Shown: positions 2,638 to 33,277 of the stretch, in pieces | Layout of the letters: each line of letters opens with the position of its first letter | Position numbering within the stretch: position 1 is the stretch's first letter | IMG/VR virus record: IMGVR_UViG_3300045242_000124 | Location: 1 to 42,370 of that record | Length of the DNA stretch: 42,370 bases | Source of the DNA: a virus | Strand: one strand, 5' to 3' | Notes under the pieces: model-generated | Databases searched by the model: none | What the model was told of the DNA's origin: nothing | The model's input: the letters and a program-made list of their open reading frames with translations, nothing else | Made by a program: the position numbers and the translations under genes

Positions 2638-4086
2638 TTAGGCCGCCGCGGCTGCCGGCGCTGCCGGCGTCGGTGTTAGGGCCGTTTTGGCCAATTGTGT
2701 GCCAGTTCCAACGGCTAGCCCACCGCCTACCGCGCTGGCAAAGTTGGAGATGGCGTTAGAGAGGTTGGTATCCTGCTGGATGGTGGCGCTCATGAGGTTA
2801 CTATAGATCGTGCCTTGCAGACTGAGGGCCTGCTCCGCGGTCCCGATCGCGCTCTGGCCTGCCTGCTGCATCTGCAGCGCGAGCTGGAAGGATTGAGCCG
2901 CAGCCGATTGCTGCACTTGAGCAATAGCCTGTGCCTCTTGGGCCGATTCACCCATACCCATGCTAGCAAAGCGGGACTTGATGGTGGCAATAGCCGCCTG
3001 TGTCGCCTGATCCACCATGGCCTGAGCACCGGGAGGCAAGACTCCGGTTGCCAATGGTTGTTCCAGCCCCTGCCCATAGGTTTGCTGCTGCGCCGAAAGC
3101 GTCCCGGCCTGATTCGCGACCGCGGTCAATGGCGCCGACCCAGGAGGCGTGTTGGTGCCCAAGGCAGATGCCAGCTTCGGCCCGAGAAGCTGCCCGCCTA
3201 CCGCCAATCCCCCAGTTAGCCCAAGGCCTGCAAGTGTTGGCCCCCACTTGCTAAGAAAGTCCCCAGAGGCCGCCGGAGCGGCACCCGTGGCGGGGGCTGC
3301 AGGAGTAGGAGATCCAAACACCCCTCCAGTCTGAGGATTGGCCGGAGAGACGGTACTGAATTCTGGCGTACTCAATGGCGCTCCTAGTTCAGCCGCGGGC
3401 GCGGCGCCAGGGAGGGCCGCAGTGCTCGGCGTCAGTCCATAGGAAGCGAGCGCATCGGTGGGGAGACCTGGGAGATCGGCGGCGGTCAGGCCAGATAGAG
3501 CAGTGCCGCCAAGCGGGCTTGCAGTGCCAGCATATCCACCGAGGGCAAGGGCATCCCCAGGAATTTGAGGCAAATCTGCGGAAGTAAGACCGGCTAAACT
3601 CGCCACCCCCGGGTCCCCGCCCGGAAGACTGCTGCCAAAAGTCGCCGAGCTGAAGTCGGGAAAATAGCCAACCCCTGGAGGGTCAAGACCGCTGGCCGCG
3701 CCGGCCGCATTCACATCTCCCGCAAAACCCAATGCCGTGCTCGGCGTGGCCGCGCCGGCCGCACCGCCAACGCCCGTCGCCAGGCTTTGCGGGGCCGTTG
3801 CAGCAGCGCCCAAGAGTGTCGGGTCAATCTGATTAGCCGTAAGGCCCAGGCTGGCAAGAAGATCCCCTATCCCAGTCGCCTCGGAGCCAGCGCCGCCGGC
3901 CGCCAGCGCCGCCGTAGCATCGCCAACCGCCGGAATGACCAATGGCGCCGCCAAGGCACCCAGCGCCGGCAAGGCAAACGGAGCGGCAACTGCGCCCAAC
4001 GTCTCGGCAATGGCGGTCGGTGACCCAAACAAATCGTTGCCCAAATTTGAAATGTTGCCTTTGAACAGATCTGTTAGGAATGACAT
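2638..4086 (-). CDS. Ala/Gly/Pro/Thr-rich low-complexity protein (482 aa), possible internal virion or ejection protein
   Basis: Long ORF in the structural operon. Short structured N-terminus (MSFLTDLFKGNISNLGNDLF), then low complexity with a duplicated GLT(S/A)ADLP..P.DALA motif and a Gln-rich C-terminal third. Confidence 0.65.
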   Translation of the reverse strand: MSFLTDLFKGNISNLGNDLFGSPTAIAETLGAVAAPFALPALGALAAPLVIPAVGDATAALAAGGAGSEATGIGDLLASLGLTANQIDPTLLGAAATAPQSLATGVGGAAGAATPSTALGFAGDVNAAGAASGLDPPGVGYFPDFSSATFGSSLPGGDPGVASLAGLTSADLPQIPGDALALGGYAGTASPLGGTALSGLTAADLPGLPTDALASYGLTPSTAALPGAAPAAELGAPLSTPEFSTVSPANPQTGGVFGSPTPAAPATGAAPAASGDFLSKWGPTLAGLGLTGGLAVGGQLLGPKLASALGTNTPPGSAPLTAVANQAGTLSAQQQTYGQGLEQPLATGVLPPGAQAMVDQATQAAIATIKSRFASMGMGESAQEAQAIAQVQQSAAAQSFQLALQMQQAGQSAIGTAEQALSLQGTIYSNLMSATIQQDTNLSNAISNFASAVGGGLAVGTGTQLAKTALTPTPAAPAAAAA

Positions 4087-4088
4087 GG

Positions 4089-4439
4089 CTAGATATCCAG
4101 AAAGGTGTGAGCGGCGAGATGTTCCTGATAGTGATTATAGACCCAATCTTGCACGGACTGTGGGTCTTTGAAGTTCAGATTGGTCAAGTCCTGCCCACCG
4201 TATCCGGTGATATTGTTCATATCGTTATGAAAGAACTGATGCCGCAGCAGACATCCCGTTGCATCACTCGCGACCCACGGAATGATAACATAGATCGGAT
4301 CGTTCGGATTGCCGGCGGCGGTATCCGCCAATATGGCCTGCTGAATATCCTGGTGGTCGATCCAGTTCTGAAACCAAAATTCATCCCACCAGCCAGCATG
4401 ATCCTGCGGTGGCGGTTCGTAGAGGTTGGGCAACCCCAT
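4089..4439 (-). CDS. Hypothetical protein (116 aa), Trp/His/Asp-rich
   Basis: ORF packed 2 nt upstream of 2638..4086 and directly after 4440..4664. Non-repetitive composition. Confidence 0.65.
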   Translation of the reverse strand: MGLPNLYEPPPQDHAGWWDEFWFQNWIDHQDIQQAILADTAAGNPNDPIYVIIPWVASDATGCLLRHQFFHNDMNNITGYGGQDLTNLNFKDPQSVQDWVYNHYQEHLAAHTFLDI

Positions 4440-4664
4440 CTATTTCACCGTCAGAGTCTTAGCCTTGCCGGCACGGTTGCCTCGCTCGCGGCCTTCATTG
4501 TCGTGCATCGCGCCTTGATGCAACGGCGAGCCGTGGGGTTTGGCGGCATAGCAACCAAGCCCCTCAGGGGTGACCACTCCGTCGGGAGTGTCAACCATGA
4601 GGTCACCAGTGACAAGGTTGGAGAGATATCCGGGGAAGTCCTTGCGGGCAAAGATCGGGATCAT
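4440..4664 (-). CDS. Hypothetical protein (74 aa)
   Basis: Start moved to the internal ATG at 4664, which forms an ATGA overlap with the stop of 4661..5404 and follows GAGGAG by 6 nt. The track ORF extends to 4709. Confidence 0.6.
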   Translation of the reverse strand: MIPIFARKDFPGYLSNLVTGDLMVDTPDGVVTPEGLGCYAAKPHGSPLHQGAMHDNEGRERGNRAGKAKTLTVK

Positions 4665-5404
4665 AGTAGTCTCCTCAGGAAGTAGGATGCGGTGCCGTTG
4701 ATCTTCCATATGTTAGCAAGATATATGGCCCCTGTCGTGGTCACATAGGCATCGCCTGCGGTTGTATAGGCAAAGTTGCCCGACAGGGCCGTGCCGGTGA
4801 CGAAGGTCAGGCCCAATCCCCCCGCCAGGCCCCCCGCCACCCCGTTGGTGATCTGCATGAGCATCGCCCCGTCCGTGGTAGGGGCGACTACGCTCAGCGA
4901 GGTCGTATTGTTGACCAGGTATTGCAAATAGCCGTTGGCAAAGTTCAAGGTGGTCGTTGCCAGGGCGGAGAAAGTTCCGACCGCAAAGGCGGTAGAATAA
5001 GCAACTGTCGCATTGTTCGCGGTGTCATTGACGATCAGCCATCCGCCAGAGCTGCTGTTCAGATCGCCCCAGTATTGCAGAATGTAATGGCTGCCGCTGA
5101 GGATCCGACCCGAGCCAGCCTGCACACCGGAGGCAGTATAGAGGTTCAAGGCCCCCAGACCGAGGAGCTGCACCGTGATCGCCGCGGTAGAGTTGGCCGT
5201 GGCCTGGAATGAGAGCATCAGGCCGTTCGTCAGAGCCGTGGGCGCGTAATAGTTGGTGCCGGGAGTGAGCGTAATGGCGTTGGCGGTGCCGCTGACCGTG
5301 CACGGGATTGCTCCCTGCTGCCCCACCACCTGGAACATCGTATCGACTTGCGATAGCGGCTGGTTGCCGGCCGCAAGGTTGGCAAAGGTGGTGGGATAAG
5401 TCAT
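4661..5404 (-). CDS. Tail fiber-like / receptor-binding candidate (247 aa)
   Basis: N-terminus MTYPTTFANLAAGNQPLSQVDTMFQ resembles fiber N-termini. The rest is Thr/Gly/Asn/Ala-rich and looks beta-rich. Lies directly after the 562-aa tail-like protein. Confidence 0.45.
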   Translation of the reverse strand: MTYPTTFANLAAGNQPLSQVDTMFQVVGQQGAIPCTVSGTANAITLTPGTNYYAPTALTNGLMLSFQATANSTAAITVQLLGLGALNLYTASGVQAGSGRILSGSHYILQYWGDLNSSSGGWLIVNDTANNATVAYSTAFAVGTFSALATTTLNFANGYLQYLVNNTTSLSVVAPTTDGAMLMQITNGVAGGLAGGLGLTFVTGTALSGNFAYTTAGDAYVTTTGAIYLANIWKINGTASYFLRRLL

Positions 5405-7093
5405 CTAGCCGCCTATTGGTGATTGCTCTTGGTATACCATGATCTCCTCGGAGAGGACGAATTTAGCGCTGCGACTGGTAGCGGTCCACCCTATCATATT
5501 GCCGCGGGTGTTAATCGACAGACCCGTGCCGATAAATCCCTCATTGCCGTCAGCATTCCAACTGATATTTGAATTGCTGGAATTGACCCACTGCACCATT
5601 TGACTTGATGCGTTGATCCAGGTTACCAAAAAAACATCACTCTGTGTAAATGCCTGTTCCACCAAGGGTGCATTTATCAACTGTGAATCCACAGTCGCAA
5701 ACTCGGTCACTCCGCTGCCAATCTGATCAAAGATGTGGGTAAATATCCGATAGGCCGACTTGGTAATCTGGAACCCACTGCCATTAAACAACTTTGTCTG
5801 CCAAATCTTGGTAAGCATACTACCATTGCTCGAAGAAAAAAGCTTATAAAGACTGATTCCATCCGTCCCCCACGCGCTGGGCTGGGAGTTTATCATCTGC
5901 GTACCGATAAATATGAGATCGGGAGATTGAGAAGCAACAAACCACTTTTTGCCATCCCACACCACAAGCGCATTACGCTTCACACTATCAAAGGGACCAC
6001 GCAGAGGAACCAAAAGAAGGTAACAGCGCTGATTATTGATCATCGCCACAGCAGACGACGGACCCTGCGTCAAGCTTAGGCTGGCTATGAAATTGCCATT
6101 ATCATCAAAAATACCATCTAGTTGATCAGAAACTTTTTGTGTTGCACCACCAAATAATGCATAAACACCGGTCGTGTTGGCATAGATCAGCCCGCGGCCA
6201 AAAGTCTGAACTGTATTTTGCCAGGAAGCCCCGATCTGCGGATCGACATTCTGGTTATTGAATGTCGTGGTTACCGTGGGGGAACCACTCGACTGAATGT
6301 TGGAAATAACATTCACCGAGGAATCACCGAACAAGTACAGAAATCCATTTGCCTGTTGGATACTAAGATATTGCCGCTTGATGAATGGATCGGTGGAGAT
6401 CTGCGAGGTAGCGCCGTTGGCAATCGTATAATCTGTTCCATCGCCAGGAGCAGAACTCAGATAGGTAACACCCAGAGCAGACCAAACACGACCTTGCCAG
6501 ACACCTACAGTAGCGCCTTGAGTACCTGAAGGCATGGTCTCCCCCGTGGTCCCACTGGTGAGCCATAAGGGTGCACCTTGCCCTGGAAAATAGATACCCG
6601 TAGTATCCGCCGCAAAATATCCATTCACCGTTGCATTGCTTACAATAACAATACCGCCGGGACTATACTGTGATGCTTGCGGCAAGGGCGTCCCAAACGT
6701 CGAGGTGCCTGGATAAAAGATGCTCGTCGTTGTAGACTGCGCCACTAAACCACCAGTCGAGGCATTATACACAGCAGCCGTACCCGTCTGAAAAGCAATA
6801 AACACATACTGATCAAAGGACACAAAAGAAGTCGAATTCTTATTCGAATTATACATATAAAAGTAAACAATTGGATTGGCGTTCGACCCCACATTCGGAA
6901 TCTCATTGGTTGCATCCACCATCGAATAGAGGTCTTTGCCGATCGGCTGCATGTTCTCCAGCCAAGAGAACTCCTCGTCATCAATGGCATCGCGGGTGAC
7001 TTGCGTATTGATGCCCTTAACCGGCTTCTGCCCAATAGCAAATAGCTTCGCCTCAGGACCGCCAGCAAACCTCTTTGCAGGATCGTCAGGCAT
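5405..7093 (-). CDS. Large tail structural protein candidate (562 aa)
   Basis: Long ORF in the post-capsid structural operon, start overlapping the stop of 7093..8028. Ser/Thr/Asn/Gly-rich and beta-rich. No motif recognised. Confidence 0.5.
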   Translation of the reverse strand: MPDDPAKRFAGGPEAKLFAIGQKPVKGINTQVTRDAIDDEEFSWLENMQPIGKDLYSMVDATNEIPNVGSNANPIVYFYMYNSNKNSTSFVSFDQYVFIAFQTGTAAVYNASTGGLVAQSTTTSIFYPGTSTFGTPLPQASQYSPGGIVIVSNATVNGYFAADTTGIYFPGQGAPLWLTSGTTGETMPSGTQGATVGVWQGRVWSALGVTYLSSAPGDGTDYTIANGATSQISTDPFIKRQYLSIQQANGFLYLFGDSSVNVISNIQSSGSPTVTTTFNNQNVDPQIGASWQNTVQTFGRGLIYANTTGVYALFGGATQKVSDQLDGIFDDNGNFIASLSLTQGPSSAVAMINNQRCYLLLVPLRGPFDSVKRNALVVWDGKKWFVASQSPDLIFIGTQMINSQPSAWGTDGISLYKLFSSSNGSMLTKIWQTKLFNGSGFQITKSAYRIFTHIFDQIGSGVTEFATVDSQLINAPLVEQAFTQSDVFLVTWINASSQMVQWVNSSNSNISWNADGNEGFIGTGLSINTRGNMIGWTATSRSAKFVLSEEIMVYQEQSPIGG

Positions 7094-8028
7094 TAGAAGT
7101 CACTCTGATAATAGTCAGGTACAAACGGGCCTGTGGTCATGCCCACAGCCTCCTTCATGCGCTCATCATATTCGCCCTTTTGCGCCTTGGCCTCCTCGTA
7201 GCGCTGAGCATCGAGCAGGGCGAGATAGGCCGCATAGTAGGGGACAGGGGTTGTCCAGGGATAAGACAGCGCCTCGGCGGTGGCGTCGGTGACCAGGGCG
7301 ACGGGGTTGCACCAGCAATCCCAATCCATCTGCGAATTCTGCGATGGAAGCTCCCACAGATAGATCGAGCCATTCACCCCCATGCTGTACTGCGACCAGA
7401 CCGTGGGGAAGTTCTGCATCCCGGTATTGTAGGAACGGAAGTAGGCTTGAAACTCGGTCCAAATCTTGGGCTGCAGCAAAGGCTTCATGGCTGCATTAGC
7501 ACCCCAGGCGCAGGCGACCGAAAACACCCCCATGATCTGATCAACCCCGGCAAGGAGGGTCTGGTTGCGGGCTAGCGTCTGCGCGGTAGAGAACTGATAG
7601 ACTTCCTGGGCTACGACAGTGGTAAGGCTATTATCGATCGTAAAGGTGACAGTGGCACCGCCGTTAACGCCGAGGCTGTCGGTGACTGTTGCCGTGGTGG
7701 TGGTTCCGGTGACGTAGCCCCAGCCGCCATTGACCAGGGTGACGGTGCTCAGAGCGCCGCCCGAGAAGGTTCCGGTAAGTTGGGCCTGCTGGCCGGCCCC
7801 ATTCACCACAATCGTTGCCACAGTCCCGGAATAACCCGAGCCTGGAGCGTTGACCGCTACCGCGGTGATGGTGCCTCCGGAGAGGAGAAGGCGTACCGAC
7901 TGGCTACGCCCAGAGATGCGCAGACGGGCGCGGTTGATATAGCCGGTGAGCTGCGCCGCCGTCCAATAATTGTTGGACGGATCGTGCAGAAGATCTGCAG
8001 CCTCATTCTGATAATTAGTGAGGGCCAT
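7093..8028 (-). CDS. Virion structural protein (311 aa), possible adaptor or tail-tube protein with an internal GxGY-bounded repeat
   Basis: Position between the head genes and the large tail protein. Contains NAPGSGYSGTVATIVVNG...VNGGWGYVTGTT, similar to repeats in 10222..11421. Confidence 0.5.
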   Translation of the reverse strand: MALTNYQNEAADLLHDPSNNYWTAAQLTGYINRARLRISGRSQSVRLLLSGGTITAVAVNAPGSGYSGTVATIVVNGAGQQAQLTGTFSGGALSTVTLVNGGWGYVTGTTTTATVTDSLGVNGGATVTFTIDNSLTTVVAQEVYQFSTAQTLARNQTLLAGVDQIMGVFSVACAWGANAAMKPLLQPKIWTEFQAYFRSYNTGMQNFPTVWSQYSMGVNGSIYLWELPSQNSQMDWDCWCNPVALVTDATAEALSYPWTTPVPYYAAYLALLDAQRYEEAKAQKGEYDERMKEAVGMTTGPFVPDYYQSDF

Positions 8029-8743
8029 TCGCCGTTACTCTCTCGAACAAGGCAAAGCCCCACGGCAGATGCAGCGGCCCGGAGAACATAACCCGGCTTG
8101 AACCGGCGGTGTAGGTCTGCATGAAGTGCGGCGAGGTCGGCTCGGGCAGGTCGATGTCGATGTTGAATTTCTCCAGCTTGGAGAGCGCATAACCCTCGCC
8201 GAGCATGAAGGCTGCCAAGCGGGCAACCCCGTAGATATTGTGGAAGCTCTTTCTCGGACGCTGGTGCTCGGTCACCACGATTTCGCAATCAATATCGCCG
8301 GCATAGAGTAGAGCCGAGAAGGCAATCCACTTTGGGTGCAGACGCACACGGATCTGGTGCAGCGGAGTAACATATTCCGGCATCCAAGAAAGCACTTGCA
8401 ACATGACCACGGCATCAACGCCGAAGATCGGTTCAATGTTTTCAAGCGACATCTGCTTGAATTCGGTGTTGGAGGCTCGGCCCTGCCAGGCTTCGGCGTG
8501 GTCAATCAGTGCCTGCGACTGGTCTATCCCCACAAATTTTGCGGTAGGAAAGCATGCGGCCAGATAATTAGTAGGACCGCCAGCACCACAGCCAGCATCG
8601 ACACAAAGACCAACATTTGCCATGCTCCCACGGATGAACTCGGAGAAATGAACCGTCGAACGGTTGGGTTGGGTGTGCTGCCGGGTGTGATACTCCAGCG
8701 TTGCCGCGTCGGGGGTGATGTTCCACTCATTGAGGCGCATCAC
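8015..8743 (-). CDS. Class I SAM-dependent methyltransferase (242 aa)
   Basis: Motif I VDAGCGAGGPTNYL followed by an acidic residue after the next strand (FVGIDQS). Size and layout fit the Rossmann methyltransferase fold. Confidence 0.8.
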   Translation of the reverse strand: MMRLNEWNITPDAATLEYHTRQHTQPNRSTVHFSEFIRGSMANVGLCVDAGCGAGGPTNYLAACFPTAKFVGIDQSQALIDHAEAWQGRASNTEFKQMSLENIEPIFGVDAVVMLQVLSWMPEYVTPLHQIRVRLHPKWIAFSALLYAGDIDCEIVVTEHQRPRKSFHNIYGVARLAAFMLGEGYALSKLEKFNIDIDLPEPTSPHFMQTYTAGSSRVMFSGPLHLPWGFALFERVTANGPH

Positions 8744-9273
8744 CGCCCTCCCTGCTGCTGGCCATCAAGCTTTGGTGCCTCTACATTACTCGGAGGATAG
8801 AATTTTCCAGGAAATTTCAGCGCGGTGACAACATCGGGAGGCATGGCTTGATAGGCCTTGGTATCCTTCTCCATATAATCGTGCATGGCATCATAGCGAG
8901 ATTGAGCCTGTTCCGGATTTGAATAGGAAGGAAACTTATCAAACCCGTATTCCTGCGCACGTGCGATTGCCTGCTCCGGCGGCAATATCTTTCCATCCCA
9001 GACTGTAGGAATGTTATAGGTCTTCCCGTCAATCTCCACTGATGTTTGAAACAGTGAAGAACGAGTCCCGTCAGGATTATCTACACCACCGCGGCCATAA
9101 AGATTACTCAAGTGCATCTGGTATAAGGCAACCTCTTGCGGATTAAGATTCAACTTCTGGCGCGCTTGTGCCAGATTGTCCGGCCTGTCCCGACCGCCTA
9201 TAAGGCTGCGCATGAGTTCGGGATTCTGCATTAGCAGGCGCGCAAAATTATCCGCGGTCAGATCAAGTGGCAT
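8740..9273 (-). CDS. Hypothetical protein (177 aa)
   Basis: ORF overlapping both neighbours by 4 and 11 nt (translational coupling). No motif recognised. Confidence 0.65.
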   Translation of the reverse strand: MPLDLTADNFARLLMQNPELMRSLIGGRDRPDNLAQARQKLNLNPQEVALYQMHLSNLYGRGGVDNPDGTRSSLFQTSVEIDGKTYNIPTVWDGKILPPEQAIARAQEYGFDKFPSYSNPEQAQSRYDAMHDYMEKDTKAYQAMPPDVVTALKFPGKFYPPSNVEAPKLDGQQQGGR

Positions 9274-10201
9274 CGACCGCCTCCAGCCATTGCTTCATCG
9301 AGTCGGGCGAGCGCTTGACGATGTTGGCGAACATGCCGTCACCGTAGACCTTCCCTTTGATGAATCTTCCGTCTGGGGACTTGAATACCTCGAAGATCTG
9401 GCAGGCTTGGGTAATGAGGGCGGTGGTGGTGGAGAATTGCTTGGTGCCCAAGCCGGTTTGATCGCCTACGGTAGCGAGAGTGCGGGCTTCGTTGATCTCC
9501 TTAACCTCGTCCTCCTTCACCGCATAGGCGTGAGTCTTGCCGGTGAGTGAGCAGTCGTAGCCGAAGAAGTGCAAGTCCTGATAGCCAAGCATGAGCGCCA
9601 TCTGAATGGCATTGACGCCGACCATGCAGCCCCAGTTCAGAGTTTCCTCACCACCGAAATAGGTGTGCTCGGTCTCCACGGTGCCAACCTGCCCCTTGAA
9701 GTGCCACATGACGACCGGGTAGGCCTCCAGCCATTCAAACATGTTGGGGTCGGCTTGCGAGGCGAGGAGATAGACCGTCTTGCCTTGCCGATGCTTATAG
9801 AAAGAGATGGTGTCGGGGGCCGGGTCGGTGACCAGAGCATAGTTGGGAATGATATCCTGTTCGACTAGGTAGTCGTGCACCGAGCCGCAGGCCATCACCG
9901 CGTCGAATTCCCGGATCTTGTCCAGGTAAAGCGGCAGCGAGGGGCCGCCGGCCACCAGCGCCATCTTTGGGTTTGGGCGCCGCCGCAAAAGACAGGGAAG
10001 ATTGAGAAAGCGCTCCACCGGCCGCCTAATATTGGCGGCGATATTAGCGGCGCGGGTTTCCTCAGGAATGCGCGCCTTGCAGACGACAATGAGTGGAACC
10101 TCGCTGCCGTCCGGGCGCTGCATCTTAAGATAGTCTAGCGGAGCATTACCGTCTAGGAGGTGGGCAGACTCCTCGAGGGTTGTCTCGACATAATCAACCA
10201 T
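9263..10201 (-). CDS. DUF115 / MptE-like (Maf-type) protein, putative nonulosonic-acid glycosyltransferase (312 aa)
   Basis: ALVAGGPSLPLYLDKIREFDAVMACGSVHDYLVEQDIIPNYALVTDP matches the GPSL...PD..v..D core as I recall it for DUF115/Maf proteins. Later GVNAIQMALMLGYQDLHFFGYDCS matches the second conserved block. Confidence 0.6.
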   Translation of the reverse strand: MVDYVETTLEESAHLLDGNAPLDYLKMQRPDGSEVPLIVVCKARIPEETRAANIAANIRRPVERFLNLPCLLRRRPNPKMALVAGGPSLPLYLDKIREFDAVMACGSVHDYLVEQDIIPNYALVTDPAPDTISFYKHRQGKTVYLLASQADPNMFEWLEAYPVVMWHFKGQVGTVETEHTYFGGEETLNWGCMVGVNAIQMALMLGYQDLHFFGYDCSLTGKTHAYAVKEDEVKEINEARTLATVGDQTGLGTKQFSTTTALITQACQIFEVFKSPDGRFIKGKVYGDGMFANIVKRSPDSMKQWLEAVDAT

Positions 10202-10221
10202 GCCTCCCGCCTTACCATGGT

Positions 10222-11421
10222 TTAGAACTGCTGCACATAGCTGGTGTCGGAGATGCCGCCGACCGTGGGAGTTCCCAGGATGGCCACCGCGGCACCGGTG
10301 GTGTTGGTGCCAATGATGCCCATCGTGGGGACCAGTTGGATGCCGAGGCCCGGATCCTCGATCACCGAACCCGTTGTGGTGATCACGCCGCCGACCACGT
10401 TGGCGGTGATGCGCGCCGGCCGCGGGAAGGTGATGCCGTTGGCGTGCAGCGGGTTGACCATCGCCGGGGAGGCCTGCGCTGCCACCAGATTTCCGGTGGA
10501 AACAAGGGTGGTCCCGGCGGGGTAGCCGGCGCCCTGGGCGGTGGTGCTGGTAAACACCGGGGGAGTAGTGATTGTGAAGTTCATCACCACCGTAGCGGCA
10601 CCGGTGCCGGTGGAGAAGCTTAGCGTGGGGACGCCGGTCAAAGCTGTACCGTGATTGGAGGGATAGAGGCCGGTGAGCACGCCCGTCGCCGTTATGGTGG
10701 CGACCACCACAGCGTTGATGGTAGGCCCGGGCGTAGTCGCGTTGGCCTCGCGCGGGTCAGGAATGAAGGTGAGGTTCGGGGCCGTGAGATATCCGGCGCC
10801 CTGATTGAGCACCTGCACAGCTGCCACCGGAATGGTGCCGCTCGAGAGCGAGGTGACGATTGCCGTGGCCTGCAAGCCGCCCGGCGGCGGCGCATCGATG
10901 ACCACAACGGGGACGAAGTTGTAGCCAGCGCCTGCCGTAGTCACGCCGGTCGAGGTGGCGAAAGCTGTCGGCAGCGCGCCGCCAATGATCGGCACCCAAG
11001 TCGAGGCACCGGATGAAACCGTGACCGTTAGGCCTGTGGCCGTCGAGCCAATGCCAGTGGTAGCGGCACTTACGGTGCCGATGGCGGTGATGACGGCACC
11101 AACCGCACAACCGGTGAGGTTGGCCAGGCGCCAATTGGACCCGTCCGACTCTACGACGATCGGGCAACCCACATCACCGACAAAATTCTTCATGCGGCCG
11201 GTGATCGGGTCGAGAAATTGGATGAAAGTGCACGGCCCGCGCGCAATCCACCACGTTCCCGCCGGGACCGTCCAGGTTTCGCCAGCCGCCAGCGTCATGG
11301 CGTTGCTCAGGCCGGTGTAATAGCCATCCGTGAACGGCGGCGAGCCGATCGCCGTGAAGTTCGACGCCAGACCGACATTGGGGAGACCGACGCCGGCTCC
11401 GCCGAGACGAGGAAGTGCCAT
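10222..11421 (-). CDS. Thr/Gly/Ala-rich capsid-associated protein (399 aa), candidate decoration or head-fiber protein
   Basis: Starts 16 nt after the major capsid gene. Several GAGY-bounded beta-like repeats (TTAGAGYNFVPVVVIDAP..., NQGAGYLTAPNLTF, TAQGAGYPAGTTLV). Very Thr/Ser-rich. Confidence 0.5.
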   Translation of the reverse strand: MALPRLGGAGVGLPNVGLASNFTAIGSPPFTDGYYTGLSNAMTLAAGETWTVPAGTWWIARGPCTFIQFLDPITGRMKNFVGDVGCPIVVESDGSNWRLANLTGCAVGAVITAIGTVSAATTGIGSTATGLTVTVSSGASTWVPIIGGALPTAFATSTGVTTAGAGYNFVPVVVIDAPPPGGLQATAIVTSLSSGTIPVAAVQVLNQGAGYLTAPNLTFIPDPREANATTPGPTINAVVVATITATGVLTGLYPSNHGTALTGVPTLSFSTGTGAATVVMNFTITTPPVFTSTTAQGAGYPAGTTLVSTGNLVAAQASPAMVNPLHANGITFPRPARITANVVGGVITTTGSVIEDPGLGIQLVPTMGIIGTNTTGAAVAILGTPTVGGISDTSYVQQF

Positions 11422-11436: not shown

Positions 11437-12453
11437 TTAGAACAGGGCGCCAGTGATGCCGGTTACCCGCATACCGGAGACCGGCTTGGTGCAAACCACG
11501 TCAAAGGCGACGATAACGACACCAATGTTCGCAATTTGTAAGTTAGGGATGGCAGAATAGAAGCCCGAGAAGGCAAACGGGGCATCCTCAGACATGTACA
11601 GCGCCAGATAGCGGCTGTTGATGACGTAGGCGGTTCCCTTCGGGCAGAAGGGATCCATAAAGATCGGGGTGTCGCCGAGCATGATGCCGCGGAAACCGGC
11701 GTTGCCCACGTCGTCGGTGCCGTAGCGGGAGCCGGGAGTCGTATAAAACGTCTCCGAACTCATATAGTCCTTCATCAAGGTTGCCCAATCTCCTGGGTAC
11801 ATCACCACAAAATCCGGCGCTTCGCCGCCGGATAGGTAGGTGGTCTGTACCAGGTAGGGAATAAAGGCGACGCGGGTGCTGGCAGCGCCGGCCGAGGTCA
11901 CCAGGTTGGATTTCCAGAACGAATTGCCCGAGGCCGAGCGATTGATGCCTCCGTATACGGAAACGTTGGTGCCGTCGTCGTAGGCCTGGAGCAGGCTATC
12001 CACCTGGGTTGGGAAGTTTGCGTTGTTGGTGAACAGAGCCGAGCTAATGGCCTGAACGGCAACGGTTTTTGCATCTGCCATTCTGGCCTTGAGAATCGGG
12101 ATAACCGCTTCCGAGCTTTGGATGAGCGCTTCCATCCCCATGAACGGAATGGGGACCACGCCGAGTTTGAGGTTGAATTCGGCGTTTTGCGCCGCGGTTT
12201 GCACCGCCGGCTGCGGAAAGACGCCCGAGTAATCGGACCAGGAGAAGGCGACATAGCTACCACCCTGCACCGGCACCGTAACCTGGGAGACACCGCCCTT
12301 GGCGCGCTGCGCATTGCGCATCAGCAGGCTCAGAAGGGGCGTTGCCTTGTAGATCTGGACAACTAGCCTCGGAATAAAGGCTCTGCGGGTGGTGGCGACG
12401 AGTTCGTTGCCGATCGCGCCTGAGGGGACGATTCCCACTCCTAACTGGGGCAT
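11437..12453 (-). CDS. Major capsid protein candidate (338 aa)
   Basis: Order is terminase, portal, scaffold-like, then this ORF. Size fits HK97-fold capsid proteins. Non-repetitive sequence. No search was run. Confidence 0.7.
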   Translation of the reverse strand: MPQLGVGIVPSGAIGNELVATTRRAFIPRLVVQIYKATPLLSLLMRNAQRAKGGVSQVTVPVQGGSYVAFSWSDYSGVFPQPAVQTAAQNAEFNLKLGVVPIPFMGMEALIQSSEAVIPILKARMADAKTVAVQAISSALFTNNANFPTQVDSLLQAYDDGTNVSVYGGINRSASGNSFWKSNLVTSAGAASTRVAFIPYLVQTTYLSGGEAPDFVVMYPGDWATLMKDYMSSETFYTTPGSRYGTDDVGNAGFRGIMLGDTPIFMDPFCPKGTAYVINSRYLALYMSEDAPFAFSGFYSAIPNLQIANIGVVIVAFDVVCTKPVSGMRVTGITGALF

Positions 12454-12508: not shown

Positions 12509-13054
12509 TTAGGTTATGATCTGCCCGCGCTTGCGGGATTCCTCGTTCCAAGCCTTCTGCGCCTCACGTTCGGCCCAGGCATCCTCGTCCTTGAACAGCA
12601 ATTCGAGGTCCTTGTCGTCAGTCTTGCGCCCAAATCCCCAATCGGTGGGCGATATGACCGAGGGTTCCTGCTGCTGTGGGGGATTCCTATGGTCCCAGAG
12701 GTCGGCAGCGTCCATGATCGACGGCAATTGCCGCTCTACCATGTATTTCTTAAGCTTTTCAATGCCTTCGTCGGTGAAGCTACGCTTTTCCTTCAAGCTT
12801 TCGATGTCTCGGGAGAGGGCATCGTCAAGCTTCTTACCCTTCTCGCCGTCCACATAGTCCGAAAACATCTTCTTGAGCTCGGCCACATCGGCAGTATAGG
12901 GCGCCATCACGTCGTCAGTGGTGACCACTTCCTCGGGGAAGTGCTCTTTGATCAGAGGTTCCACCTTGCGGCGTGTTTTGGGCGACAAAAGCTTGTCGAG
13001 GAGGGCGCGCGAACCGCGAAGAACCGCCAGTTCCTGGTCGGAGATCTCAGCCAT
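12509..13054 (-). CDS. Scaffolding protein candidate (181 aa)
   Basis: Highly charged, helix or coiled-coil-like (Glu/Lys/Asp-rich). Lies immediately upstream of the capsid gene and downstream of the portal. Confidence 0.6.
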   Translation of the reverse strand: MAEISDQELAVLRGSRALLDKLLSPKTRRKVEPLIKEHFPEEVVTTDDVMAPYTADVAELKKMFSDYVDGEKGKKLDDALSRDIESLKEKRSFTDEGIEKLKKYMVERQLPSIMDAADLWDHRNPPQQQEPSVISPTDWGFGRKTDDKDLELLFKDEDAWAEREAQKAWNEESRKRGQIIT

Positions 13055-13865: not shown

Positions 13866-15563
13866 TCACTTGCGTTTGCCCTTGGTCAGCATTTCAGGAT
13901 GTTCCTTTACTAGCTGAGCTTGAGCAGCTTCGCGTTGTTTGGCATGCGCGATTAGAATATCCATGTGCGGTGGGTGCGTCAACATGATGGTGTCGGCACC
14001 GTCGATGGCACCAAGCTTGGCGAGCGCAAATGCAAGCCGCTCGTGGTCCTCGGCGTAAACCGGGGAGGATGAATGGGAATCGACTATCAGCTTGGCATCC
14101 TCGGGAAGCTGACTCAGCAGGAAGGAATTCTTGCCCGCCTGATTTACCGACGCATCCTTGGCCTGCAGCATCCGAAAACAGAAGTCGCCCCACTCGACAC
14201 ATTGCCGCTCGATAGCGAGCGAGCGATCGCGCATTCGCGGCGAGGAATTCCGGGCGAGTGTGGCCGCCTGCTGCTGCGAACGTACACCCTGATCGCCCTG
14301 CCCGGATAGGATCGGCGTAAAGCCGGCCACGTCGTCAAACATCTGCATGGTCATTTCCAGGCGGCGGAACAGCTCGGGTGGTATATCCGGCGTGTGATCC
14401 TCCATTTTCGCATTTGGATTCTCTTCTGCAATAAAGCCGCCAGGCCGTTTGAATGCCTTGTATTTCTCCAATGTCATGCCGGCAAAGCCAGTAGCACTTC
14501 GAGGAGGATCTGAACGTAATTTGGTAATTCGGCGGATCGCCTGAACCTGCTCGTTCATATCGTCCTGCAAGCGATACAGATAGGCAACCTCAGACTGCCC
14601 CCAAAAGTAACCTTCAGTCTCATTAGCACATACTTTTACAAATGGGTGATGCCCGCGCATCTCATGGTCATTCTCAAGACCATCTCCCAAGCCGCAGAGA
14701 TTCCTACGCCTTTCGGCTCCCTCGACTACAATGTCGGGCTTTACGATTCGAATGGTGGTGTAATCTTGCCGTTCTCTATCTTGGATCCATAATTCATCAA
14801 GCCGGACGAGACTAGTAGCAACTTTGGAGTCCAATACAGGTGTCGGGACACCAACGATTCCGACCATACCACTCCCGCTAGAGGTGGTGAGGGAGACGGG
14901 TTGGGTGCCGCCGACGATGATCTGGCGGAAGTAGTCATTGTTAAAGTCCTCCTGCTCCCGATTGGTCATGGTCCCATTCTTGACCTGATCCATGATCTTC
15001 TTGCGGTCGGGGTGGTCCCATATAGTGCGCTCGAAAGCGCCGGGGGTCATATAGGTTGACTGGACAAAGGCTTCCTGGCGGTCAAGATCGTCGATGTCCT
15101 CGCGCAACACCCCGAAGAAGTTGGGGCGCACGATCCAACCCTCGAGGCCGTCGTGACCCCAGATGCCCTTGATGATCTGACAGCCATCGATCAGAGACCC
15201 ATCAAGAGCTAGCTTAAAAGCCATGTCGAGGTTTCGATTCCGGAACTCGCGATTGAACTTTCGCGCTGCAACATCTCCCATAGTGTGAACTTCGGCGGGT
15301 TCCTCGGAGTCGAATTCAAAATCAAAGCGCACATCGGCAGGTGAGAAGAGGAAAGCCGAGAGTCTATCAATGTGAGGGTATATTCGGTTGTAAGTCGTAA
15401 CTTCGGCATCACTTGTCCCCGTGTAGAAGTAACTCCGATACATCTTGATGAGATCGCGGCGCTGCTCGCGTGACGACGAGCACTCCTCGATGAGACCCAG
15501 CGCCCACTCGGCCAGATTTTTCTGCGGGATCTTAAGCGCCACGTTTCCTGCCGCCCACGACAT
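13866..15563 (-). CDS. Portal protein (565 aa)
   Basis: Size and position (three small genes after the large terminase, before scaffold and capsid). Non-repetitive acidic protein. Confidence 0.75.
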   Translation of the reverse strand: MSWAAGNVALKIPQKNLAEWALGLIEECSSSREQRRDLIKMYRSYFYTGTSDAEVTTYNRIYPHIDRLSAFLFSPADVRFDFEFDSEEPAEVHTMGDVAARKFNREFRNRNLDMAFKLALDGSLIDGCQIIKGIWGHDGLEGWIVRPNFFGVLREDIDDLDRQEAFVQSTYMTPGAFERTIWDHPDRKKIMDQVKNGTMTNREQEDFNNDYFRQIIVGGTQPVSLTTSSGSGMVGIVGVPTPVLDSKVATSLVRLDELWIQDRERQDYTTIRIVKPDIVVEGAERRRNLCGLGDGLENDHEMRGHHPFVKVCANETEGYFWGQSEVAYLYRLQDDMNEQVQAIRRITKLRSDPPRSATGFAGMTLEKYKAFKRPGGFIAEENPNAKMEDHTPDIPPELFRRLEMTMQMFDDVAGFTPILSGQGDQGVRSQQQAATLARNSSPRMRDRSLAIERQCVEWGDFCFRMLQAKDASVNQAGKNSFLLSQLPEDAKLIVDSHSSSPVYAEDHERLAFALAKLGAIDGADTIMLTHPPHMDILIAHAKQREAAQAQLVKEHPEMLTKGKRK

Positions 15564-29401: not shown

Positions 29402-29418
29402 AGTCAAGGGAGGCTTTG

Positions 29419-29862
29419 ATGGCCAATGAGACTGTGGAATTGACGATACAATTCGTCAATCCTCCCAAAGAGGGGTCAAAGTGGGGGAGCATCAAATCCT
29501 CAGAAGGAATCTTCTACGGCGGCCCGCCCGCCTTGCTAAGGCAGTTCACTGCAGGTGAAGTTTGCACGATCGAATTCAGCAAGTCTGCCAATGGTCTTTA
29601 CAATAACATCGTCAAAAAGATCGGCGCCAGCAAGCCGGCGCCATTGTCTCCCCCACCGCGGCAACGGACGCACCCTAACGATCAAACCAGCATCTTTGTC
29701 ACTGCCTTGCTCGGCCACTTCATCCACACCGGCAAGGTCGCGCTTCAAGAAGATATGATTGCCGAAGCCGCAGACATGATCCTGCGCGCCTACCGGAAAT
29801 GCTCGCTCGGCGGTCTGCAGGTGCAGACCCGTGACGACATGGACGATTCCATAGGATTCTGA
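29419..29862 (+). CDS. Hypothetical protein (147 aa), first gene of the sugar operon
   Basis: ATG at 29419 lies 5 nt after GGGAGG (the track starts at the TTG at 29416). Its stop overlaps the next ATG. No motif recognised. Confidence 0.6.
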   Translation: MANETVELTIQFVNPPKEGSKWGSIKSSEGIFYGGPPALLRQFTAGEVCTIEFSKSANGLYNNIVKKIGASKPAPLSPPPRQRTHPNDQTSIFVTALLGHFIHTGKVALQEDMIAEAADMILRAYRKCSLGGLQVQTRDDMDDSIGF

Positions 29863-30728: not shown

Positions 30729-30931
30729 CCGACATTGTGGAGCGGCTGCGGTATCAGTCCAAGGATTTTGGATACTTGCGCCTGGAAGCCGCCGCCGAGA
30801 TCGAGCAGCTACGTGCCGAGAATGCCGGCATCCAACAGGTGGCAACGCGCTTTGAGGGAGAAGCCGAAAGATTGCGCACTGAGATCGAGCAGCTGCGGAC
30901 TGAGATAGCGCGGATGCAGACCGGCACATGA
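30725..30931 (+). CDS. Small coiled-coil protein (68 aa) inside the sugar operon
   Basis: The ATG at 30725 forms ATGA with the NeuB-like stop. Heptad-like repeat AEIEQLRAENAGIQ...EAERLRTEIEQLRTEIARMQ. Confidence 0.55.
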   Translation: MTDIVERLRYQSKDFGYLRLEAAAEIEQLRAENAGIQQVATRFEGEAERLRTEIEQLRTEIARMQTGT

Positions 30932-31593
30932 TTCATTGCTTGATTAGTGCTCGAGCACATTCTGAGAGATTGCCTGGCAAGCATTTTCTCGACATCGGCA
31001 GCGGCATGATGGTGATGCAGCACGTCGAGCGGAGATGCAGGCACTTCGGAATGCAGCCCGTGTTCTGTGTCCCCGCACCGGAAATAAGTGAGTTTGACCA
31101 ATGGCTTGGTTGCACTGTCTACGGCGGAGACCCCGACAACCTGGAGGCGCGATTGATCGAGTGTGCAATCGGGTTGGAGTTGAAGCAGTTTCATCATCTT
31201 GATGGTGACGATCCGTTCTTTGATGAAACTGGAATTGTCTCCAGCATGCGCGCCCTGCAGCAATCCAATGCCGCGCGAATTACGCCAAGTTACGAGTCAC
31301 AGTCCGGATCAGGACGAATGGGGACGAGCTATAACCTGATGCAGAATGCGCAGGGCGAGGGGATTCTGGTCGAGGAGGGCAGGACCGCTCCATGGCCCCA
31401 GCGACTGACCCTGGACTATATCGAGGACTATCATTTATTGCTCGTGGTCAATCGCATCGTTGGCGGCTACATGGCGCCCAGGTGGGCGGTGGATGATGCC
31501 TTTGTCCGCAATCCCGACCTGCACAAGATCAACTGGTTCCGCACCGCAGAATGGAAAGATCGCCAGCTCGGCGCAGTCAAGAAGGTGATGTGA
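30928..31593 (+). CDS. Cytidylyltransferase-family protein (CMP-nonulosonate synthetase / SpsF-like), 221 aa
   Basis: The N-terminus IHCLISARAHSERLPGKHFLDIGSGMMVMQHV fits the i.AR..S.RlPGK...l.g.p.i motif of the acylneuraminate cytidylyltransferase family. Confidence 0.6.
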   Translation: MIHCLISARAHSERLPGKHFLDIGSGMMVMQHVERRCRHFGMQPVFCVPAPEISEFDQWLGCTVYGGDPDNLEARLIECAIGLELKQFHHLDGDDPFFDETGIVSSMRALQQSNAARITPSYESQSGSGRMGTSYNLMQNAQGEGILVEEGRTAPWPQRLTLDYIEDYHLLLVVNRIVGGYMAPRWAVDDAFVRNPDLHKINWFRTAEWKDRQLGAVKKVM

Positions 31594-32643
31594 ATGAGTG
31601 ACCCCGTTGCCGAGTTTGAGCGTCGCTTTGCCGAGAAGATCGGCACCGAGTACGCCATAGCGGTCAATAGCGGCACCAGCGCCCTGCATGCTGCCCTCGA
31701 GGCTGTTGATGTACGCGGCGGCGAGGTGATCATGCCTGCCCTGTGCCCGGCGATGGTGGCGTTTGCCATCATTCACGCCGGAGCTCAGCCGATATTTGCC
31801 GACGTGCATCCAGAGACATTCCTAGTCACCCCGACCACTATTTCCCCGCTGATAGGCAACAATACCCGAGCGATTATCCCGGTGTCTCTGTATGGCCTGC
31901 CAGCCGATACCGATGCACTAAAGGATCTTGCACTTCCAATCATCGAAGACTGCGCCCAATGCCTATTCGGGCGTTACAAGGATACCTTCGCCGGTCCGAA
32001 GGCAGACATGGCTTGCTATTCCTTTGAAGCAAAAAAGCACATGACCACCGGCTCGGAAGGAGGGATGATCATCACCAATAACGCTGCACTGGCGGAACGC
32101 GCCCGCAAGTTCAGCGGCCTCGGGTATGCACACTTGAGCGCGGGTATGGGAGGCACGAGAACATCCCTCAATATACCCGAGGCACAATCCCCCGATTATC
32201 TACGCTTTGATACGATCGGCCTCAATTACCGCATGAGTTTTGCGCAGGCCGAGAAGGGCATCTATGCCCTCAAATATGTTCAGGAGCGTATCCAGCTGCG
32301 ACAAGAGATCGGCTATTTGTGGCAGCATGTCCTGGGTAGCGAGCTGCAAAAGCACTCCTACGATGCCGATCACACATTCTGGACCGCCGCTTGGCCTGGA
32401 CCGATCCCGGAATGGCGGGACTTTTATGATGGGTTTGTTAAACGCGGAGGCGACGGGTTCTATGCCGCACCGCAACTGCCGTGGAATGAACCAGCACTCT
32501 CGGACTTCAAGCCCCTAAATGCAACCCCAGTCGCCGAGAGACTGCAGCGCAGCCTGATGCTGTTCAAGACTAATTATCGCTCGCTCTACTACGCCATGCA
32601 GCAAACCAAGATCCTACAGGAGATGCTGCATGTTCCGGCTTAA
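31594..32643 (+). CDS. DegT/DnrJ/EryC1/StrS-family PLP-dependent sugar aminotransferase (349 aa)
   Basis: EFERRFAEKIGTEYAIAVNSGTSALHAALEAV plus the lysine region YSFEAKKHMTTGSEGGMIITNN match family signatures. Confidence 0.85.
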   Translation: MSDPVAEFERRFAEKIGTEYAIAVNSGTSALHAALEAVDVRGGEVIMPALCPAMVAFAIIHAGAQPIFADVHPETFLVTPTTISPLIGNNTRAIIPVSLYGLPADTDALKDLALPIIEDCAQCLFGRYKDTFAGPKADMACYSFEAKKHMTTGSEGGMIITNNAALAERARKFSGLGYAHLSAGMGGTRTSLNIPEAQSPDYLRFDTIGLNYRMSFAQAEKGIYALKYVQERIQLRQEIGYLWQHVLGSELQKHSYDADHTFWTAAWPGPIPEWRDFYDGFVKRGGDGFYAAPQLPWNEPALSDFKPLNATPVAERLQRSLMLFKTNYRSLYYAMQQTKILQEMLHVPA

Positions 32644-33277
32644 GGGCAAGCGGGTGGCGGTAATAGGCTGTGATGGACTATTGGGCAAGGTGGCTGTCGA
32701 GACGGTAGAGGAATTGGGAGGTAAGGTGACCGAATATGATTTGAGGATCGGGGACGACATCAGGGAGTCATCGTTTGTCGTTGCTGCGATGCACGACAAT
32801 GTAGATGCGGTTATAAACTGCGCCATTGGCAACCAGGCGCCGGTCAAGGACGCAGACCTGTGGTTCAAGAGAGATCTTGATATAGGCCTCACCGGCGCGC
32901 TGAATGTCGCCATGGGATTTGAGCAAGCGCTGAGGCGAAACAAGGGGAGTCTCGTCTTTGTTGGTTCCGACCTGTCGTTTATAGCCCCATATCCTGAGCG
33001 CTACGCTCCCAATTACAAGCCTTTGGCCTACTCCGTAGTAAAGCACGGAATCATAGGCATGACCCGCTATCTAGCGGCCCACTGGGGGCCGGATGTGCGG
33101 GTGAATTGCCTATGCCCTGGCGGGATAGACCAGGGGCAGGCCGTGCCTAGGTGCCCCCTGGGCCGCCTGGCAAAGCCGGAGGAGATGAAGGGTCCGATAG
33201 CGTTCCTATTGTCGGAGGCCTCGAGCTACATGACTGGGACAACCCTGGTCGTCGATGGAGGAAGAACAATATGGTGA
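32630..33277 (+). CDS. Short-chain dehydrogenase/reductase (215 aa)
   Basis: GKRVAVIGCDGLLGK (glycine-rich NAD(P) loop), VINCAIG, YSVVKHG (YxxxK) and NCLCPGGI. Confidence 0.8.
   Translation: MFRLKGKRVAVIGCDGLLGKVAVETVEELGGKVTEYDLRIGDDIRESSFVVAAMHDNVDAVINCAIGNQAPVKDADLWFKRDLDIGLTGALNVAMGFEQALRRNKGSLVFVGSDLSFIAPYPERYAPNYKPLAYSVVKHGIIGMTRYLAAHWGPDVRVNCLCPGGIDQGQAVPRCPLGRLAKPEEMKGPIAFLLSEASSYMTGTTLVVDGGRTIW

Follow-up and report, generated by a model that had tools for sequence, protein, structure and literature searches.

Two described systems come close to the locus reported here. Mycobacteriophage virions are reported to be glycosylated by phage-encoded transferases (Freeman et al. 2023, cited in PMC12619734 and PMC11256854), and glycosylation by Maf proteins is described as a cytoplasmic reaction that uses sugars activated with cytidine monophosphate (CMP) directly (PMC4065374). 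Flagellin is recognized by Maf through flanking domains, that is, a TPR domain or the partner GlfM (bioRxiv 10.1101/2023.12.03.569772). Here, we describe the IMG/VR virus record IMGVR_UViG_3300045242_000124, whose 42,370 nucleotides were analyzed as a whole and are called the window in the following. As the second gene behind its capsid gene, the window encodes a Maf-like protein of 312 amino acids, and a second locus holds a sugar cassette of the nonulosonate type. The best explanation that we can offer for this arrangement is that a virion protein is glycosylated, and we hold it with moderate confidence.

RESULTS

A Maf-like enzyme is encoded among the head genes

The first-pass annotation of the window had pointed to four open reading frames (ORFs) of 399, 312, 177, and 242 amino acids between capsid and tail genes as a candidate virion glycosylation module. 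All four were found on the minus strand, and so were the motifs quoted for them (VAGGPSLPLYLD, EQDIIPNYALVTDPAPD, and LGYQDLHFFGYDCS, plus VDAGCGAGG in the methyltransferase). The module and its neighbors are as follows:

11437..12453, minus strand: major capsid protein, 338 amino acids (phrog_9953 major head protein, E = 4.1e-28)
10222..11421, minus strand: structural protein, 399 amino acids, all-beta and Thr/Gly/Ala-rich, in a minor capsid/head-fiber position
9263..10201, minus strand: Maf-type enzyme, 312 amino acids, PF01973/DUF115, stand-alone
8740..9273, minus strand: ORF without assignment, 177 amino acids, between enzyme and methyltransferase, in this genome only
8015..8743, minus strand: class I S-adenosylmethionine (SAM)-dependent methyltransferase, 241 to 242 amino acids, Methyltransf_12/25/11/31; likely start is the ATG at 8740
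7093..8028, minus strand: structural protein, 311 amino acids, with PHROG baseplate, head-closure, and structural matches, all weak

The 312-amino-acid protein passed the threshold of Pfam family PF01973 (MptE-like; E = 5.5e-14, 52.7 bits at a gathering cut-off of 34.6), with residues 56 to 220 matching profile positions 9 to 169 of 171, and the assignment to the DUF115/Maf type that had been made from motifs is thereby borne out. Precomputed PF01973 matches are present in 18/18 homologues, the sole NCBIfam match is the FlagModPseD (Maf) flagellin-modification domain (E = 1.3e-6), and a PHROG annotated as alpha-2,3-sialyltransferase matches as well (E = 1.7e-4). A family profile built from 18 homologues with 43 to 78% identity gave one meaningful match among solved structures, the Maf of Magnetospirillum magneticum (5MU5, E = 3.2e-7), and no MptE chain at E <= 1. 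Judged by sequence, the protein is closer to Maf than to MptE.

Maf and MptE were also compared at the level of structure. The AlphaFold model of the 312-amino-acid protein (predicted local distance difference test [pLDDT] score of 87, predicted template-modeling [pTM] score of 0.84) had Maf 5MU5 as its top Foldseek match (E = 8.3e-6), followed by the archaeal MptE kinase 8SD5 and then by GT29/GT42 sialyltransferases (E of 7.6e-4 to 2.4e-2, identity of 9 to 13%). In Maf, E324 and D415 are reported to be critical for activity (bioRxiv 10.1101/2020.06.03.131540). In the profile alignment to 5mu5_A, D126 stands opposite E324 and D216 opposite D415, and both residues are invariant in 36/36 distinct phage homologues, among which all collected clades are represented.

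Only the central domain of 5MU5 (residues 260 to 426 of 666) is covered by the alignment, and no TPR or other additional Pfam domain was found in the 312-amino-acid protein. Among the genome ORFs scanned, neither flagellar genes nor genes of the pterin/folate pathway were recognized. The gene call of the Joint Genome Institute (JGI) is shorter (286 amino acids, starting at Met27); the 26 residues upstream of Met27 are conserved in the closest homologues (P0002 to P0008), and therefore the 312-amino-acid form is favored. Profile matches and the predicted fold suggest that the protein works like a Maf-type CMP-sugar:protein transferase, though not as a flagellar Maf, and we designate it a putative CMP-nonulosonate:protein O-glycosyltransferase.

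A partial nonulosonate cassette

A plus-strand cassette of six genes diverges from the early genes and a Cro-like gene (29119-29346):

29416..29862, plus strand: conserved protein, 148 amino acids, first cassette gene; no Pfam match; directly upstream of NeuB in L005, L006, and L024
29862..30728, plus strand: short NeuB-family nonulosonate synthase (PF03102, E = 1.4e-64), without the C-terminal SAF domain
30928..31593, plus strand: divergent cytidylyltransferase, presumed CMP-sugar synthetase (PF02348, 21.0 bits at a cut-off of 22.6)
31594..32643, plus strand: DegT/PseC/LegC-type sugar aminotransferase dependent on pyridoxal phosphate (PF01041, E = 4.5e-59)
32630..33277, plus strand: short-chain dehydrogenase/reductase (SDR), last cassette enzyme (adh_short_C2, E = 3.7e-31)
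33151-33822, plus strand: GcrA-like cell-cycle regulator at the cassette end (PF07750, E = 1e-19)

The synthase matches NeuB_NnaB (225 bits) and PseI (186 bits) in NCBIfam, both under the equivalog cut-offs, and its best matches in the PDB are, in this order, SpsE (1VLI), PseI (8H2C), and NeuB. The aminotransferase matches PseC (142 bits) and the LegC family (133 bits), again below cut-off, and sugar aminotransferases in the PDB, among them the Kdo8N transaminase. For the cytidylyltransferase, KdsB-type proteins were found in NCBIfam (E = 6e-7) and the PDB (E = 1.2e-4); it is 50 to 73% identical in relatives, and its counterpart on the ERZ1426829 contig has a precomputed PF02348 match. The SDR, whose best NCBIfam match is the oxidoreductase PRK09186, is kept in all cassette-bearing relatives. 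As listed, the GcrA-like ORF overlaps the SDR gene by 127 nucleotides; its real start is probably an ATG near 33271, so that just 7 nucleotides would be shared with the SDR stop.

No cassette enzyme reaches an NCBIfam equivalog cut-off by which the type of nonulosonate could be assigned. Measured against the complete, six-enzyme pathway to CMP-pseudaminic or CMP-legionaminic acid, the synthase and aminotransferase are clear, the cytidylyltransferase is weak, and the SDR belongs to another type than the enzymes of that pathway. The CMP-nonulosonate operon that had been placed at 29.4 to 33.3 kb is thus a real locus, but "self-contained" was too strong a word for it, as three canonical steps were not found; the pathway is incomplete and has to rely on enzymes of the host or on unrecognized ORFs.

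Enzyme and cassette occur together in close relatives

In contigs with close homologues, the gene order is capsid, a protein of about 400 amino acids, the Maf-like protein, usually the methyltransferase, and then proteins of about 310 and 550 amino acids. The capsid protein is 84 to 95% identical to that of the window in every close relative with a measurable capsid gene. In the window and seven of its relatives, a single named contig bears both the enzyme and the NeuB/cytidylyltransferase/aminotransferase/SDR cassette; the seven are SRR14194067_81742, SRR30731236_56243, four IMG/VR contigs, and the ERZ1426829 contig. Two further relatives have both loci, with matching less firm than for the seven. 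A random separation of the two loci, which had been named as an observation that would speak against a link, was not seen in the close clade, where all relatives examined have the cassette. We consider the identity of the enzyme and its functional link to a nonulosonate-type cassette well supported and likely to be correct.

Several close relatives carry modifying enzymes without a counterpart in the window (L003, 2606-3199; L004, 153-695 and 14594-15058; L102, 1-380 and 16792-17256; L006, 10828-11394). They comprise an O-methyltransferase of the TylF type encoded close to the packaging genes, a GNAT acetyltransferase of 154 amino acids in the tail-gene region, and, within the sugar cassette, a second methyltransferase.

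The arrangement recurs beside unrelated or very distant capsid genes

In a deep clade (L011 to L019), whose capsid protein is about 24% identical to that of the window, the capsid gene is followed by a gene for a Ser/Thr/Ala-rich protein of about 190 amino acids and then by one to three Maf-like genes interleaved with genes for proteins of about 260 and 130 amino acids. A third instance comes from an unrelated phage, L029 (IMGVR_UViG_3300025030_001443, 2178-9416), whose portal is of the P22 type and whose capsid protein belongs to another family. Here, the capsid gene is followed by genes for a 264-amino-acid protein (22.7% Ser+Thr) and for a 549-amino-acid protein in which a class I methyltransferase is fused to a Maf-like (MptE-like) domain, after which come NeuB, an aminotransferase of class IV, a radical-SAM/SPASM protein, and a clear cytidylyltransferase. 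L029 shows the module in compact form and with another set of sugar-tailoring genes. The proteins that precede the enzyme in the window clade, the deep clade, and L029 are mutually unrelated in sequence. The order of capsid, Ser/Thr-rich protein, and Maf-like gene is found in three lineages whose capsid genes are unrelated or very distant.

The methyltransferase domain of L029 was considered as an orthologue of the window methyltransferase and rejected, the two being relatives at the level of the fold only. The deep clade has tandem Maf-like paralogues, two or three per locus (L011, 9965-12502; L014, 9986-12434; L015, 2771-5458; L016, 1-3265; L019, 9470-12007), interleaved with small Ser/Thr/Gly-rich proteins and a conserved protein of about 260 amino acids; no sugar-synthesis genes lie within 10 kb of these paralogue loci.

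The enzyme occupies a variable slot between core structural genes

The 399-amino-acid protein belongs to a family of more than 600 homologues. Among 68 IMG/VR loci of this family with enough downstream sequence to judge, a Maf-like gene follows the 399-like gene in 13, and none lies within about 4 kb in the other 55. The first impression that the enzyme always follows the 399-amino-acid gene was thereby ruled out. In five enzyme-free loci that were inspected (L111, L121, L126, L127, and L162), the 399-like gene runs straight into the 311-like gene, whereas L124 (5226-6317) holds about 1.1 kb of other cargo, encoding a 364-amino-acid protein, and no Maf-like gene. The 311-amino-acid gene is hence the downstream edge of an insertion slot. 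This slot, flanked on both sides by a core structural gene, varies in content, and in the window it holds 2.2 kb of accessory cargo (8015-10201). Because most 399-like genes have no Maf-like neighbor, the 399-amino-acid protein belongs to the structural core of a large lineage and the enzyme is cargo.

Other cargo was seen in the slot as well (L113, 5961-8328; L115, 5976-6842; L118, 6010-6909; L122, 5958-6980). One such cargo is a protein of about 300 amino acids with an N-terminal "SLPxWG" motif, which in L115 has a weak GT2 match (E = 0.0027), and the cargo of L113 has a weak match to PhyH-like dioxygenases (E = 5e-4).

The 399-amino-acid protein contains 15.8% Thr, 5.8% Ser, 13.8% Gly, and 12.5% Ala and just 2% Lys+Arg. 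Its AlphaFold model (pLDDT 78.6) is all-beta with residues 1 to 38 disordered and has no fold match in the PDB; naming the protein by its fold failed, since BFVD gave weak, low-TM matches to multidomain virion structural proteins. The label "capsid-associated" that it had been given reflects its position rather than a demonstrated property. In phage SU10, gp10 is encoded between the capsid and adaptor genes and is immunoglobulin-like, resembling minor capsid and head-fiber proteins (PMC9509320). The 399-amino-acid gene occupies the slot of gp10, and the portal, capsid, and adaptor families of SU10 have weak or clade-level matches in this phage group. For the 311-amino-acid protein, the role of an SU10-type adaptor was tried and dropped, as an hhalign comparison with deep-clade proteins matching PF24175 was not significant.

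The 242-amino-acid protein matches Methyltransf_12, _25, _11, and _31 above their cut-offs and, with its VDAGCGAGG motif, is the class I methyltransferase that it was taken for. Its best sequence match in the PDB is the Rickettsia protein lysine methyltransferase PKMT1 (E = 4.7e-7), confined to the SAM-binding core; the substrate could be a sugar or a protein. The gene directly follows the Maf-like gene in L001, L004, L007 to L010, and L102, and in L003 it is found close to the packaging genes. The sugar cassette of the ERZ1426829 contig contains a methyltransferase with an identical set of Pfam domains, a candidate orthologue. The 177-amino-acid ORF between enzyme and methyltransferase has no match in Pfam, PHROG, or NCBIfam, is absent from all relatives examined, and shows marginal similarity (E of about 4e-3) to structural/DNA-transfer proteins of epsilon15-like phages.

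Genome and late operon

The first 127 bases of the window are identical to the last 127 (1-127 and 42244-42370), and the contig is therefore a complete genome, circular or terminally redundant, of about 42.2 kb. The phage is short-tailed, with a genome of about 42 kb, and probably has an alphaproteobacterial host, as indicated by the GcrA-like gene, a match in a Xanthobacteraceae metagenome-assembled genome (MAG), and a distant Bradyrhizobium phage capsid relative. No integrase-sized gene was recognized among the genome ORFs scanned. The minus strand is a packed late operon in which a gene for a 623-amino-acid protein, the portal gene, a scaffold-like gene, and the capsid gene precede the four module ORFs and the tail genes:

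16644-18515, minus strand: large packaging gene, 623 amino acids, late operon
13866-15563, minus strand: portal gene, late operon
12509-13054, minus strand: scaffold-like gene, late operon

In the string of head genes that carries the module, the upstream end is marked by the capsid gene, whose product has a weak Pfam match to SU10_MCP. From there, the gap to the 399-amino-acid gene is 15 nucleotides and the next, to the Maf-like gene, is 20 nucleotides; the Maf-like and 177-amino-acid genes overlap by 11 nucleotides, the stop of the latter overlaps the start of the methyltransferase gene (GTGATG), and the methyltransferase and 311-amino-acid genes overlap by 14 nucleotides. Downstream follow a gene for a 562-amino-acid protein and further tail genes. 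Promoter- and terminator-like sites in the region did not exceed the frequency seen in shuffled sequence, and the intergenic gaps contain none.

Two tail proteins of the window are probably glycan-degrading, one of 643 amino acids (35986-37917) with a pectate-lyase-like domain (PF12708, E = 5.6e-12) and one of 346 amino acids (38296-39336) with an arabinofuranosidase-B-like catalytic region (PF09206, E = 2.5e-7). A 201-amino-acid ORF at 4080-4685 on the plus strand is probably spurious, whereas the ORF of about 116 amino acids at 4092-4439 on the minus strand is a real gene, 53% identical to a 111-amino-acid gene in the equivalent place in L004. The homologue of the 623-amino-acid packaging gene in L003 (1-2609) has a LAGLIDADG-type insertion, with its homologous halves about 0.9 kb apart, and a comparable LAGLIDADG-type match lies within an 824-amino-acid ORF of L014 (70-2541). 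In L001 and L003, the structural genes are also interspersed with inserted HNH endonuclease genes.

Distribution of the family

A profile search of 1.84 billion representative proteins (one per 50%-identity cluster) returned 214 representatives at E <= 1e-30 and 1729 at E <= 1e-10, and most family members are stand-alone proteins of 260 to 310 amino acids. Across 185,579 bacterial and archaeal species (one genome each), a scan that used peptide patterns, and by which absence is not proven, gave one match; the contig in question, 6 kb long and from a Xanthobacteraceae MAG, resembles a piece of a phage genome of the deep clade. The 50,697 GenBank phage records contain no match to the region, the enzyme, its deep-clade homologue, or the methyltransferase in DNA and protein searches, and a NeuB homologue is present in only 3 of them. 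The nearest deposited capsid relative, MW202753 (44% identity), has neither the 399-amino-acid gene nor the enzyme. Full-text searches of the literature on phage Maf/DUF115, nonulosonic acid, and virion glycosylation gave no description of such a module and no cultured phage that has it. The arrangement had been called uncharacterized, and nothing comparable in GenBank phages or in the literature searched contradicts this. Virion glycosylation by phage transferases is already known for mycobacteriophages; a Maf-type enzyme in that role is undescribed in the literature searched.

DISCUSSION

In our model, the synthase, cytidylyltransferase, aminotransferase, and SDR of the cassette would, together with host enzymes, produce a CMP-activated nonulosonic acid or related 2-keto-3-deoxy acid. 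The Maf-like enzyme would be made late, along with the head proteins, and would transfer the sugar in the cytoplasm to Ser/Thr residues of at least one virion protein before or during assembly. By its position, the 399-amino-acid protein encoded just upstream would be the leading candidate for the acceptor, and the adjacent methyltransferase may modify the sugar or the same protein. The cytoplasmic chemistry of Maf fits a virion target, because phage particles are assembled in the cytoplasm. What speaks most strongly for a target in the head is the recurrence of the enzyme beside capsid genes, combined with the joining of Maf-like domain, methyltransferase, and NeuB in L029. Of the proposal that the phage O-glycosylates its own virion protein, the part that stands is carried by the enzyme family, the conserved acidic residues, the co-occurrence with the cassette, and L029, whereas the choice of acceptor goes back to gene position.

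Several findings weigh against this reading. In the Foldseek comparison, the fold likeness to MptE 8SD5 (E = 5.4e-5) is nearly as good as that to Maf, and the target-normalized TM-score (0.65) is higher than Maf's. The conserved catalytic-site Ser, shown to matter in two other Maf proteins (S334 in CbMaf, S356 in GkMaf), aligns with Cys192/Met193 in the 312-amino-acid protein, the position being located by its distance of 23 residues ahead of the second acidic residue; among phage homologues, position 192 is Cys in 22, Ser in 10, and Thr in 2, and position 193 is Thr in 18, Met in 9, and Ser in 7. The cytidylyltransferase stays below the Pfam threshold, and a 4,6-dehydratase, an N-acetyltransferase, and a hydrolase/hydrolyzing epimerase were not found among essentially all ORFs of at least 100 amino acids. 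Nine of the enzyme-carrying loci belong to a more distant clade (capsid identity of 66 to 77%) and are absent from the match lists of NeuB and of the family-specific cytidylyltransferase, and in one distant contig, the 8.4 kb that follow the tail genes contain no sugar genes. Enzyme-carrying phages of this outer clade include IMGVR_UViG_3300004633_000006, 3300031753_000020, 3300031669_000043, and 3300003465_000008, and among their relatives, 3300030521_000004, 3300047160_022185, and 3300032893_000143 lack the enzyme. A Clostridium Maf is reported to accept both CMP-nonulosonate and the CMP-activated form of 3-deoxy-D-manno-octulosonate (CMP-Kdo) (bioRxiv 10.1101/2020.06.03.131540), and one may speculate that the distant-clade phages might use host CMP-Kdo or CMP-nonulosonate. 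Finally, late expression of the Maf-like gene is deduced from gene order, and the donor sugar, the acceptor, and any glycan on the particle are likewise inferred from the genes.

The composition of the structural proteins also fails to mark the acceptor. The 399-like proteins contain 21.5% Ser+Thr with the enzyme and 22.0% without it (P = 0.58), the capsid proteins of enzyme-bearing and enzyme-free relatives do not differ in Ser/Thr content (P = 0.51), and other tail proteins of the window are equally Ser/Thr-rich. Ser/Thr content as a mark of the acceptor was therefore ruled out, and with it the Thr-richness that had been taken as a sign of the 399-amino-acid target, the more so since most members of the family live without the enzyme. 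Only adjacency is left in favor of the 399-amino-acid protein, and to name it as the specific acceptor is a positional guess that we consider rather unlikely to be right.

If the acceptor is not in the particle, it may be on the host: a Maf-like protein could, in the course of infection, glycosylate flagellin, pilin, S-layer, or some other protein of the surface, and such remodeling could block superinfection by competing phages or prevent progeny from re-adsorbing to dying cells. Flagellin is the acceptor of all characterized Maf proteins, the cassette lies beside the early region and the Cro-like gene, as would fit early expression, the GcrA-like regulator suggests host manipulation, and glycosylation of pili and flagella has been discussed as protection from phages (bioRxiv 10.1101/2022.03.25.485807). 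We nevertheless consider host remodeling improbable, because the 312-amino-acid protein has none of the N- or C-terminal elements of flagellin recognition (TPR domain or GlfM partner) and because its gene lies within the head-gene string in three independent lineages, where late expression would leave little time to alter an exported surface; with no integrase recognized, lysogenic conversion is unlikely as well. The probability is lower again that the enzyme acts on a scaffold or assembly factor, a defense component, or another cytoplasmic protein and that the particle is free of sugar. Sequence fixes no acceptor, Ser/Thr content is equal with and without the enzyme, and the varying cargo of the slot (weakly GT2-like, weakly PhyH-like) means that its position may reflect a permissive insertion site. 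But a permissive site alone hardly explains why a Maf-like gene after a capsid gene and a Ser/Thr-rich protein recurs in unrelated capsid lineages, and no candidate for a nonstructural partner is conserved with the enzyme. DNA was set aside as the target of glycosylation, as no base-modification genes were recognized and the gene lies among head genes.

A different question is whether the protein is a glycosyltransferase at all. An MptE-like pyrophosphokinase, or another nucleotide-using enzyme of the shared fold, whose link to the cassette is coincidental, would agree with the name of the Pfam family, taken from MptE, with the Foldseek match to 8SD5, only slightly behind Maf in E value, and with the absence of the conserved Maf Ser. 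We hold this to be very unlikely: by sequence, the family profile matches Maf and not MptE, the rest of the structural match list consists of GT29/GT42 sialyltransferases, the genome has no pterin/folate context among the ORFs scanned, the enzyme and the cassette are found together in all close relatives (two of them matched less firmly), and in L029, a Maf-like domain is fused or adjacent to a methyltransferase and NeuB. Thus, glycosylation of a virion protein by a Maf-type transferase remains the reading that we prefer.

A broader version of it would be that stand-alone enzymes of the Maf type, a large family essentially confined to phages and acquired at least three times independently beside a capsid gene, coat phage heads with sialic-acid-like sugars, supplied by the phage's own cassette or by host pools of CMP-Kdo or CMP-nonulosonate. 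We put this forward tentatively, as a plausible idea that may well not hold. If virion proteins are the target, these would be the first nonulosonate-glycosylated bacteriophage particles, and Maf enzymes would have a new class of acceptor, with flagellin joined by a second natural one. Virion glycosylation would extend from mycobacteriophages to phages of Gram-negative hosts and to a negatively charged, chemically very different sugar, with a bearing on phage stability, adsorption, grazing, and immune recognition. In addition, a compact, one-enzyme cytoplasmic transferase of about 300 amino acids would be available for protein glyco-engineering.

Comparison with known systems

The mycobacteriophage system is alike in that phage transferases encoded beside structural genes are, according to the reports cited above, proposed or shown to act on the phage's own capsid and tail proteins. 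It differs in its glycosyltransferase family, its sugars, and its actinobacterial host, and these reports describe it without a Maf-type enzyme or a nonulosonate pathway; glycosylation is reported there from mass spectrometry, while the module described here is known from sequence alone.

The enzyme itself finds its best match in sequence and fold in the Maf proteins (M. magneticum 5MU5, the Maf of Clostridium botulinum and Geobacillus, and Maf-1/Maf-2 of Shewanella), with which it shares the PF01973 catalytic domain, acidic residues in the positions of E324 and D415, a His in that of H425, and the genomic link to a NeuB-type sugar pathway and a methyltransferase. Maf proper O-glycosylates Ser/Thr in the cytoplasm from CMP-sugars, an activity that is predicted for the phage protein. 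In contrast to Maf proteins of about 600 to 670 amino acids, the phage protein has 312 and is devoid of the N-terminal domain, TPR domain, and GlfM partner; its gene stands in a head-gene string without flagellar context, and the Maf Ser aligns with Cys/Met. MptE, the 6-hydroxymethylpterin diphosphokinase (8SD5), shares the Pfam family and the core fold but has no detectable sequence similarity to the phage-family profile, and it is a kinase and not a protein transferase, for which the window offers no pterin context. The sialyltransferases of families GT42 and GT29 (Cst-I and Cst-II of Campylobacter; mammalian ST3Gal, ST6Gal, and ST8Sia) have a related, modified GT-A fold that binds a CMP-sugar; their similarity is remote, and they sialylate glycans and not protein Ser/Thr, the residues that the phage enzyme is proposed to modify.

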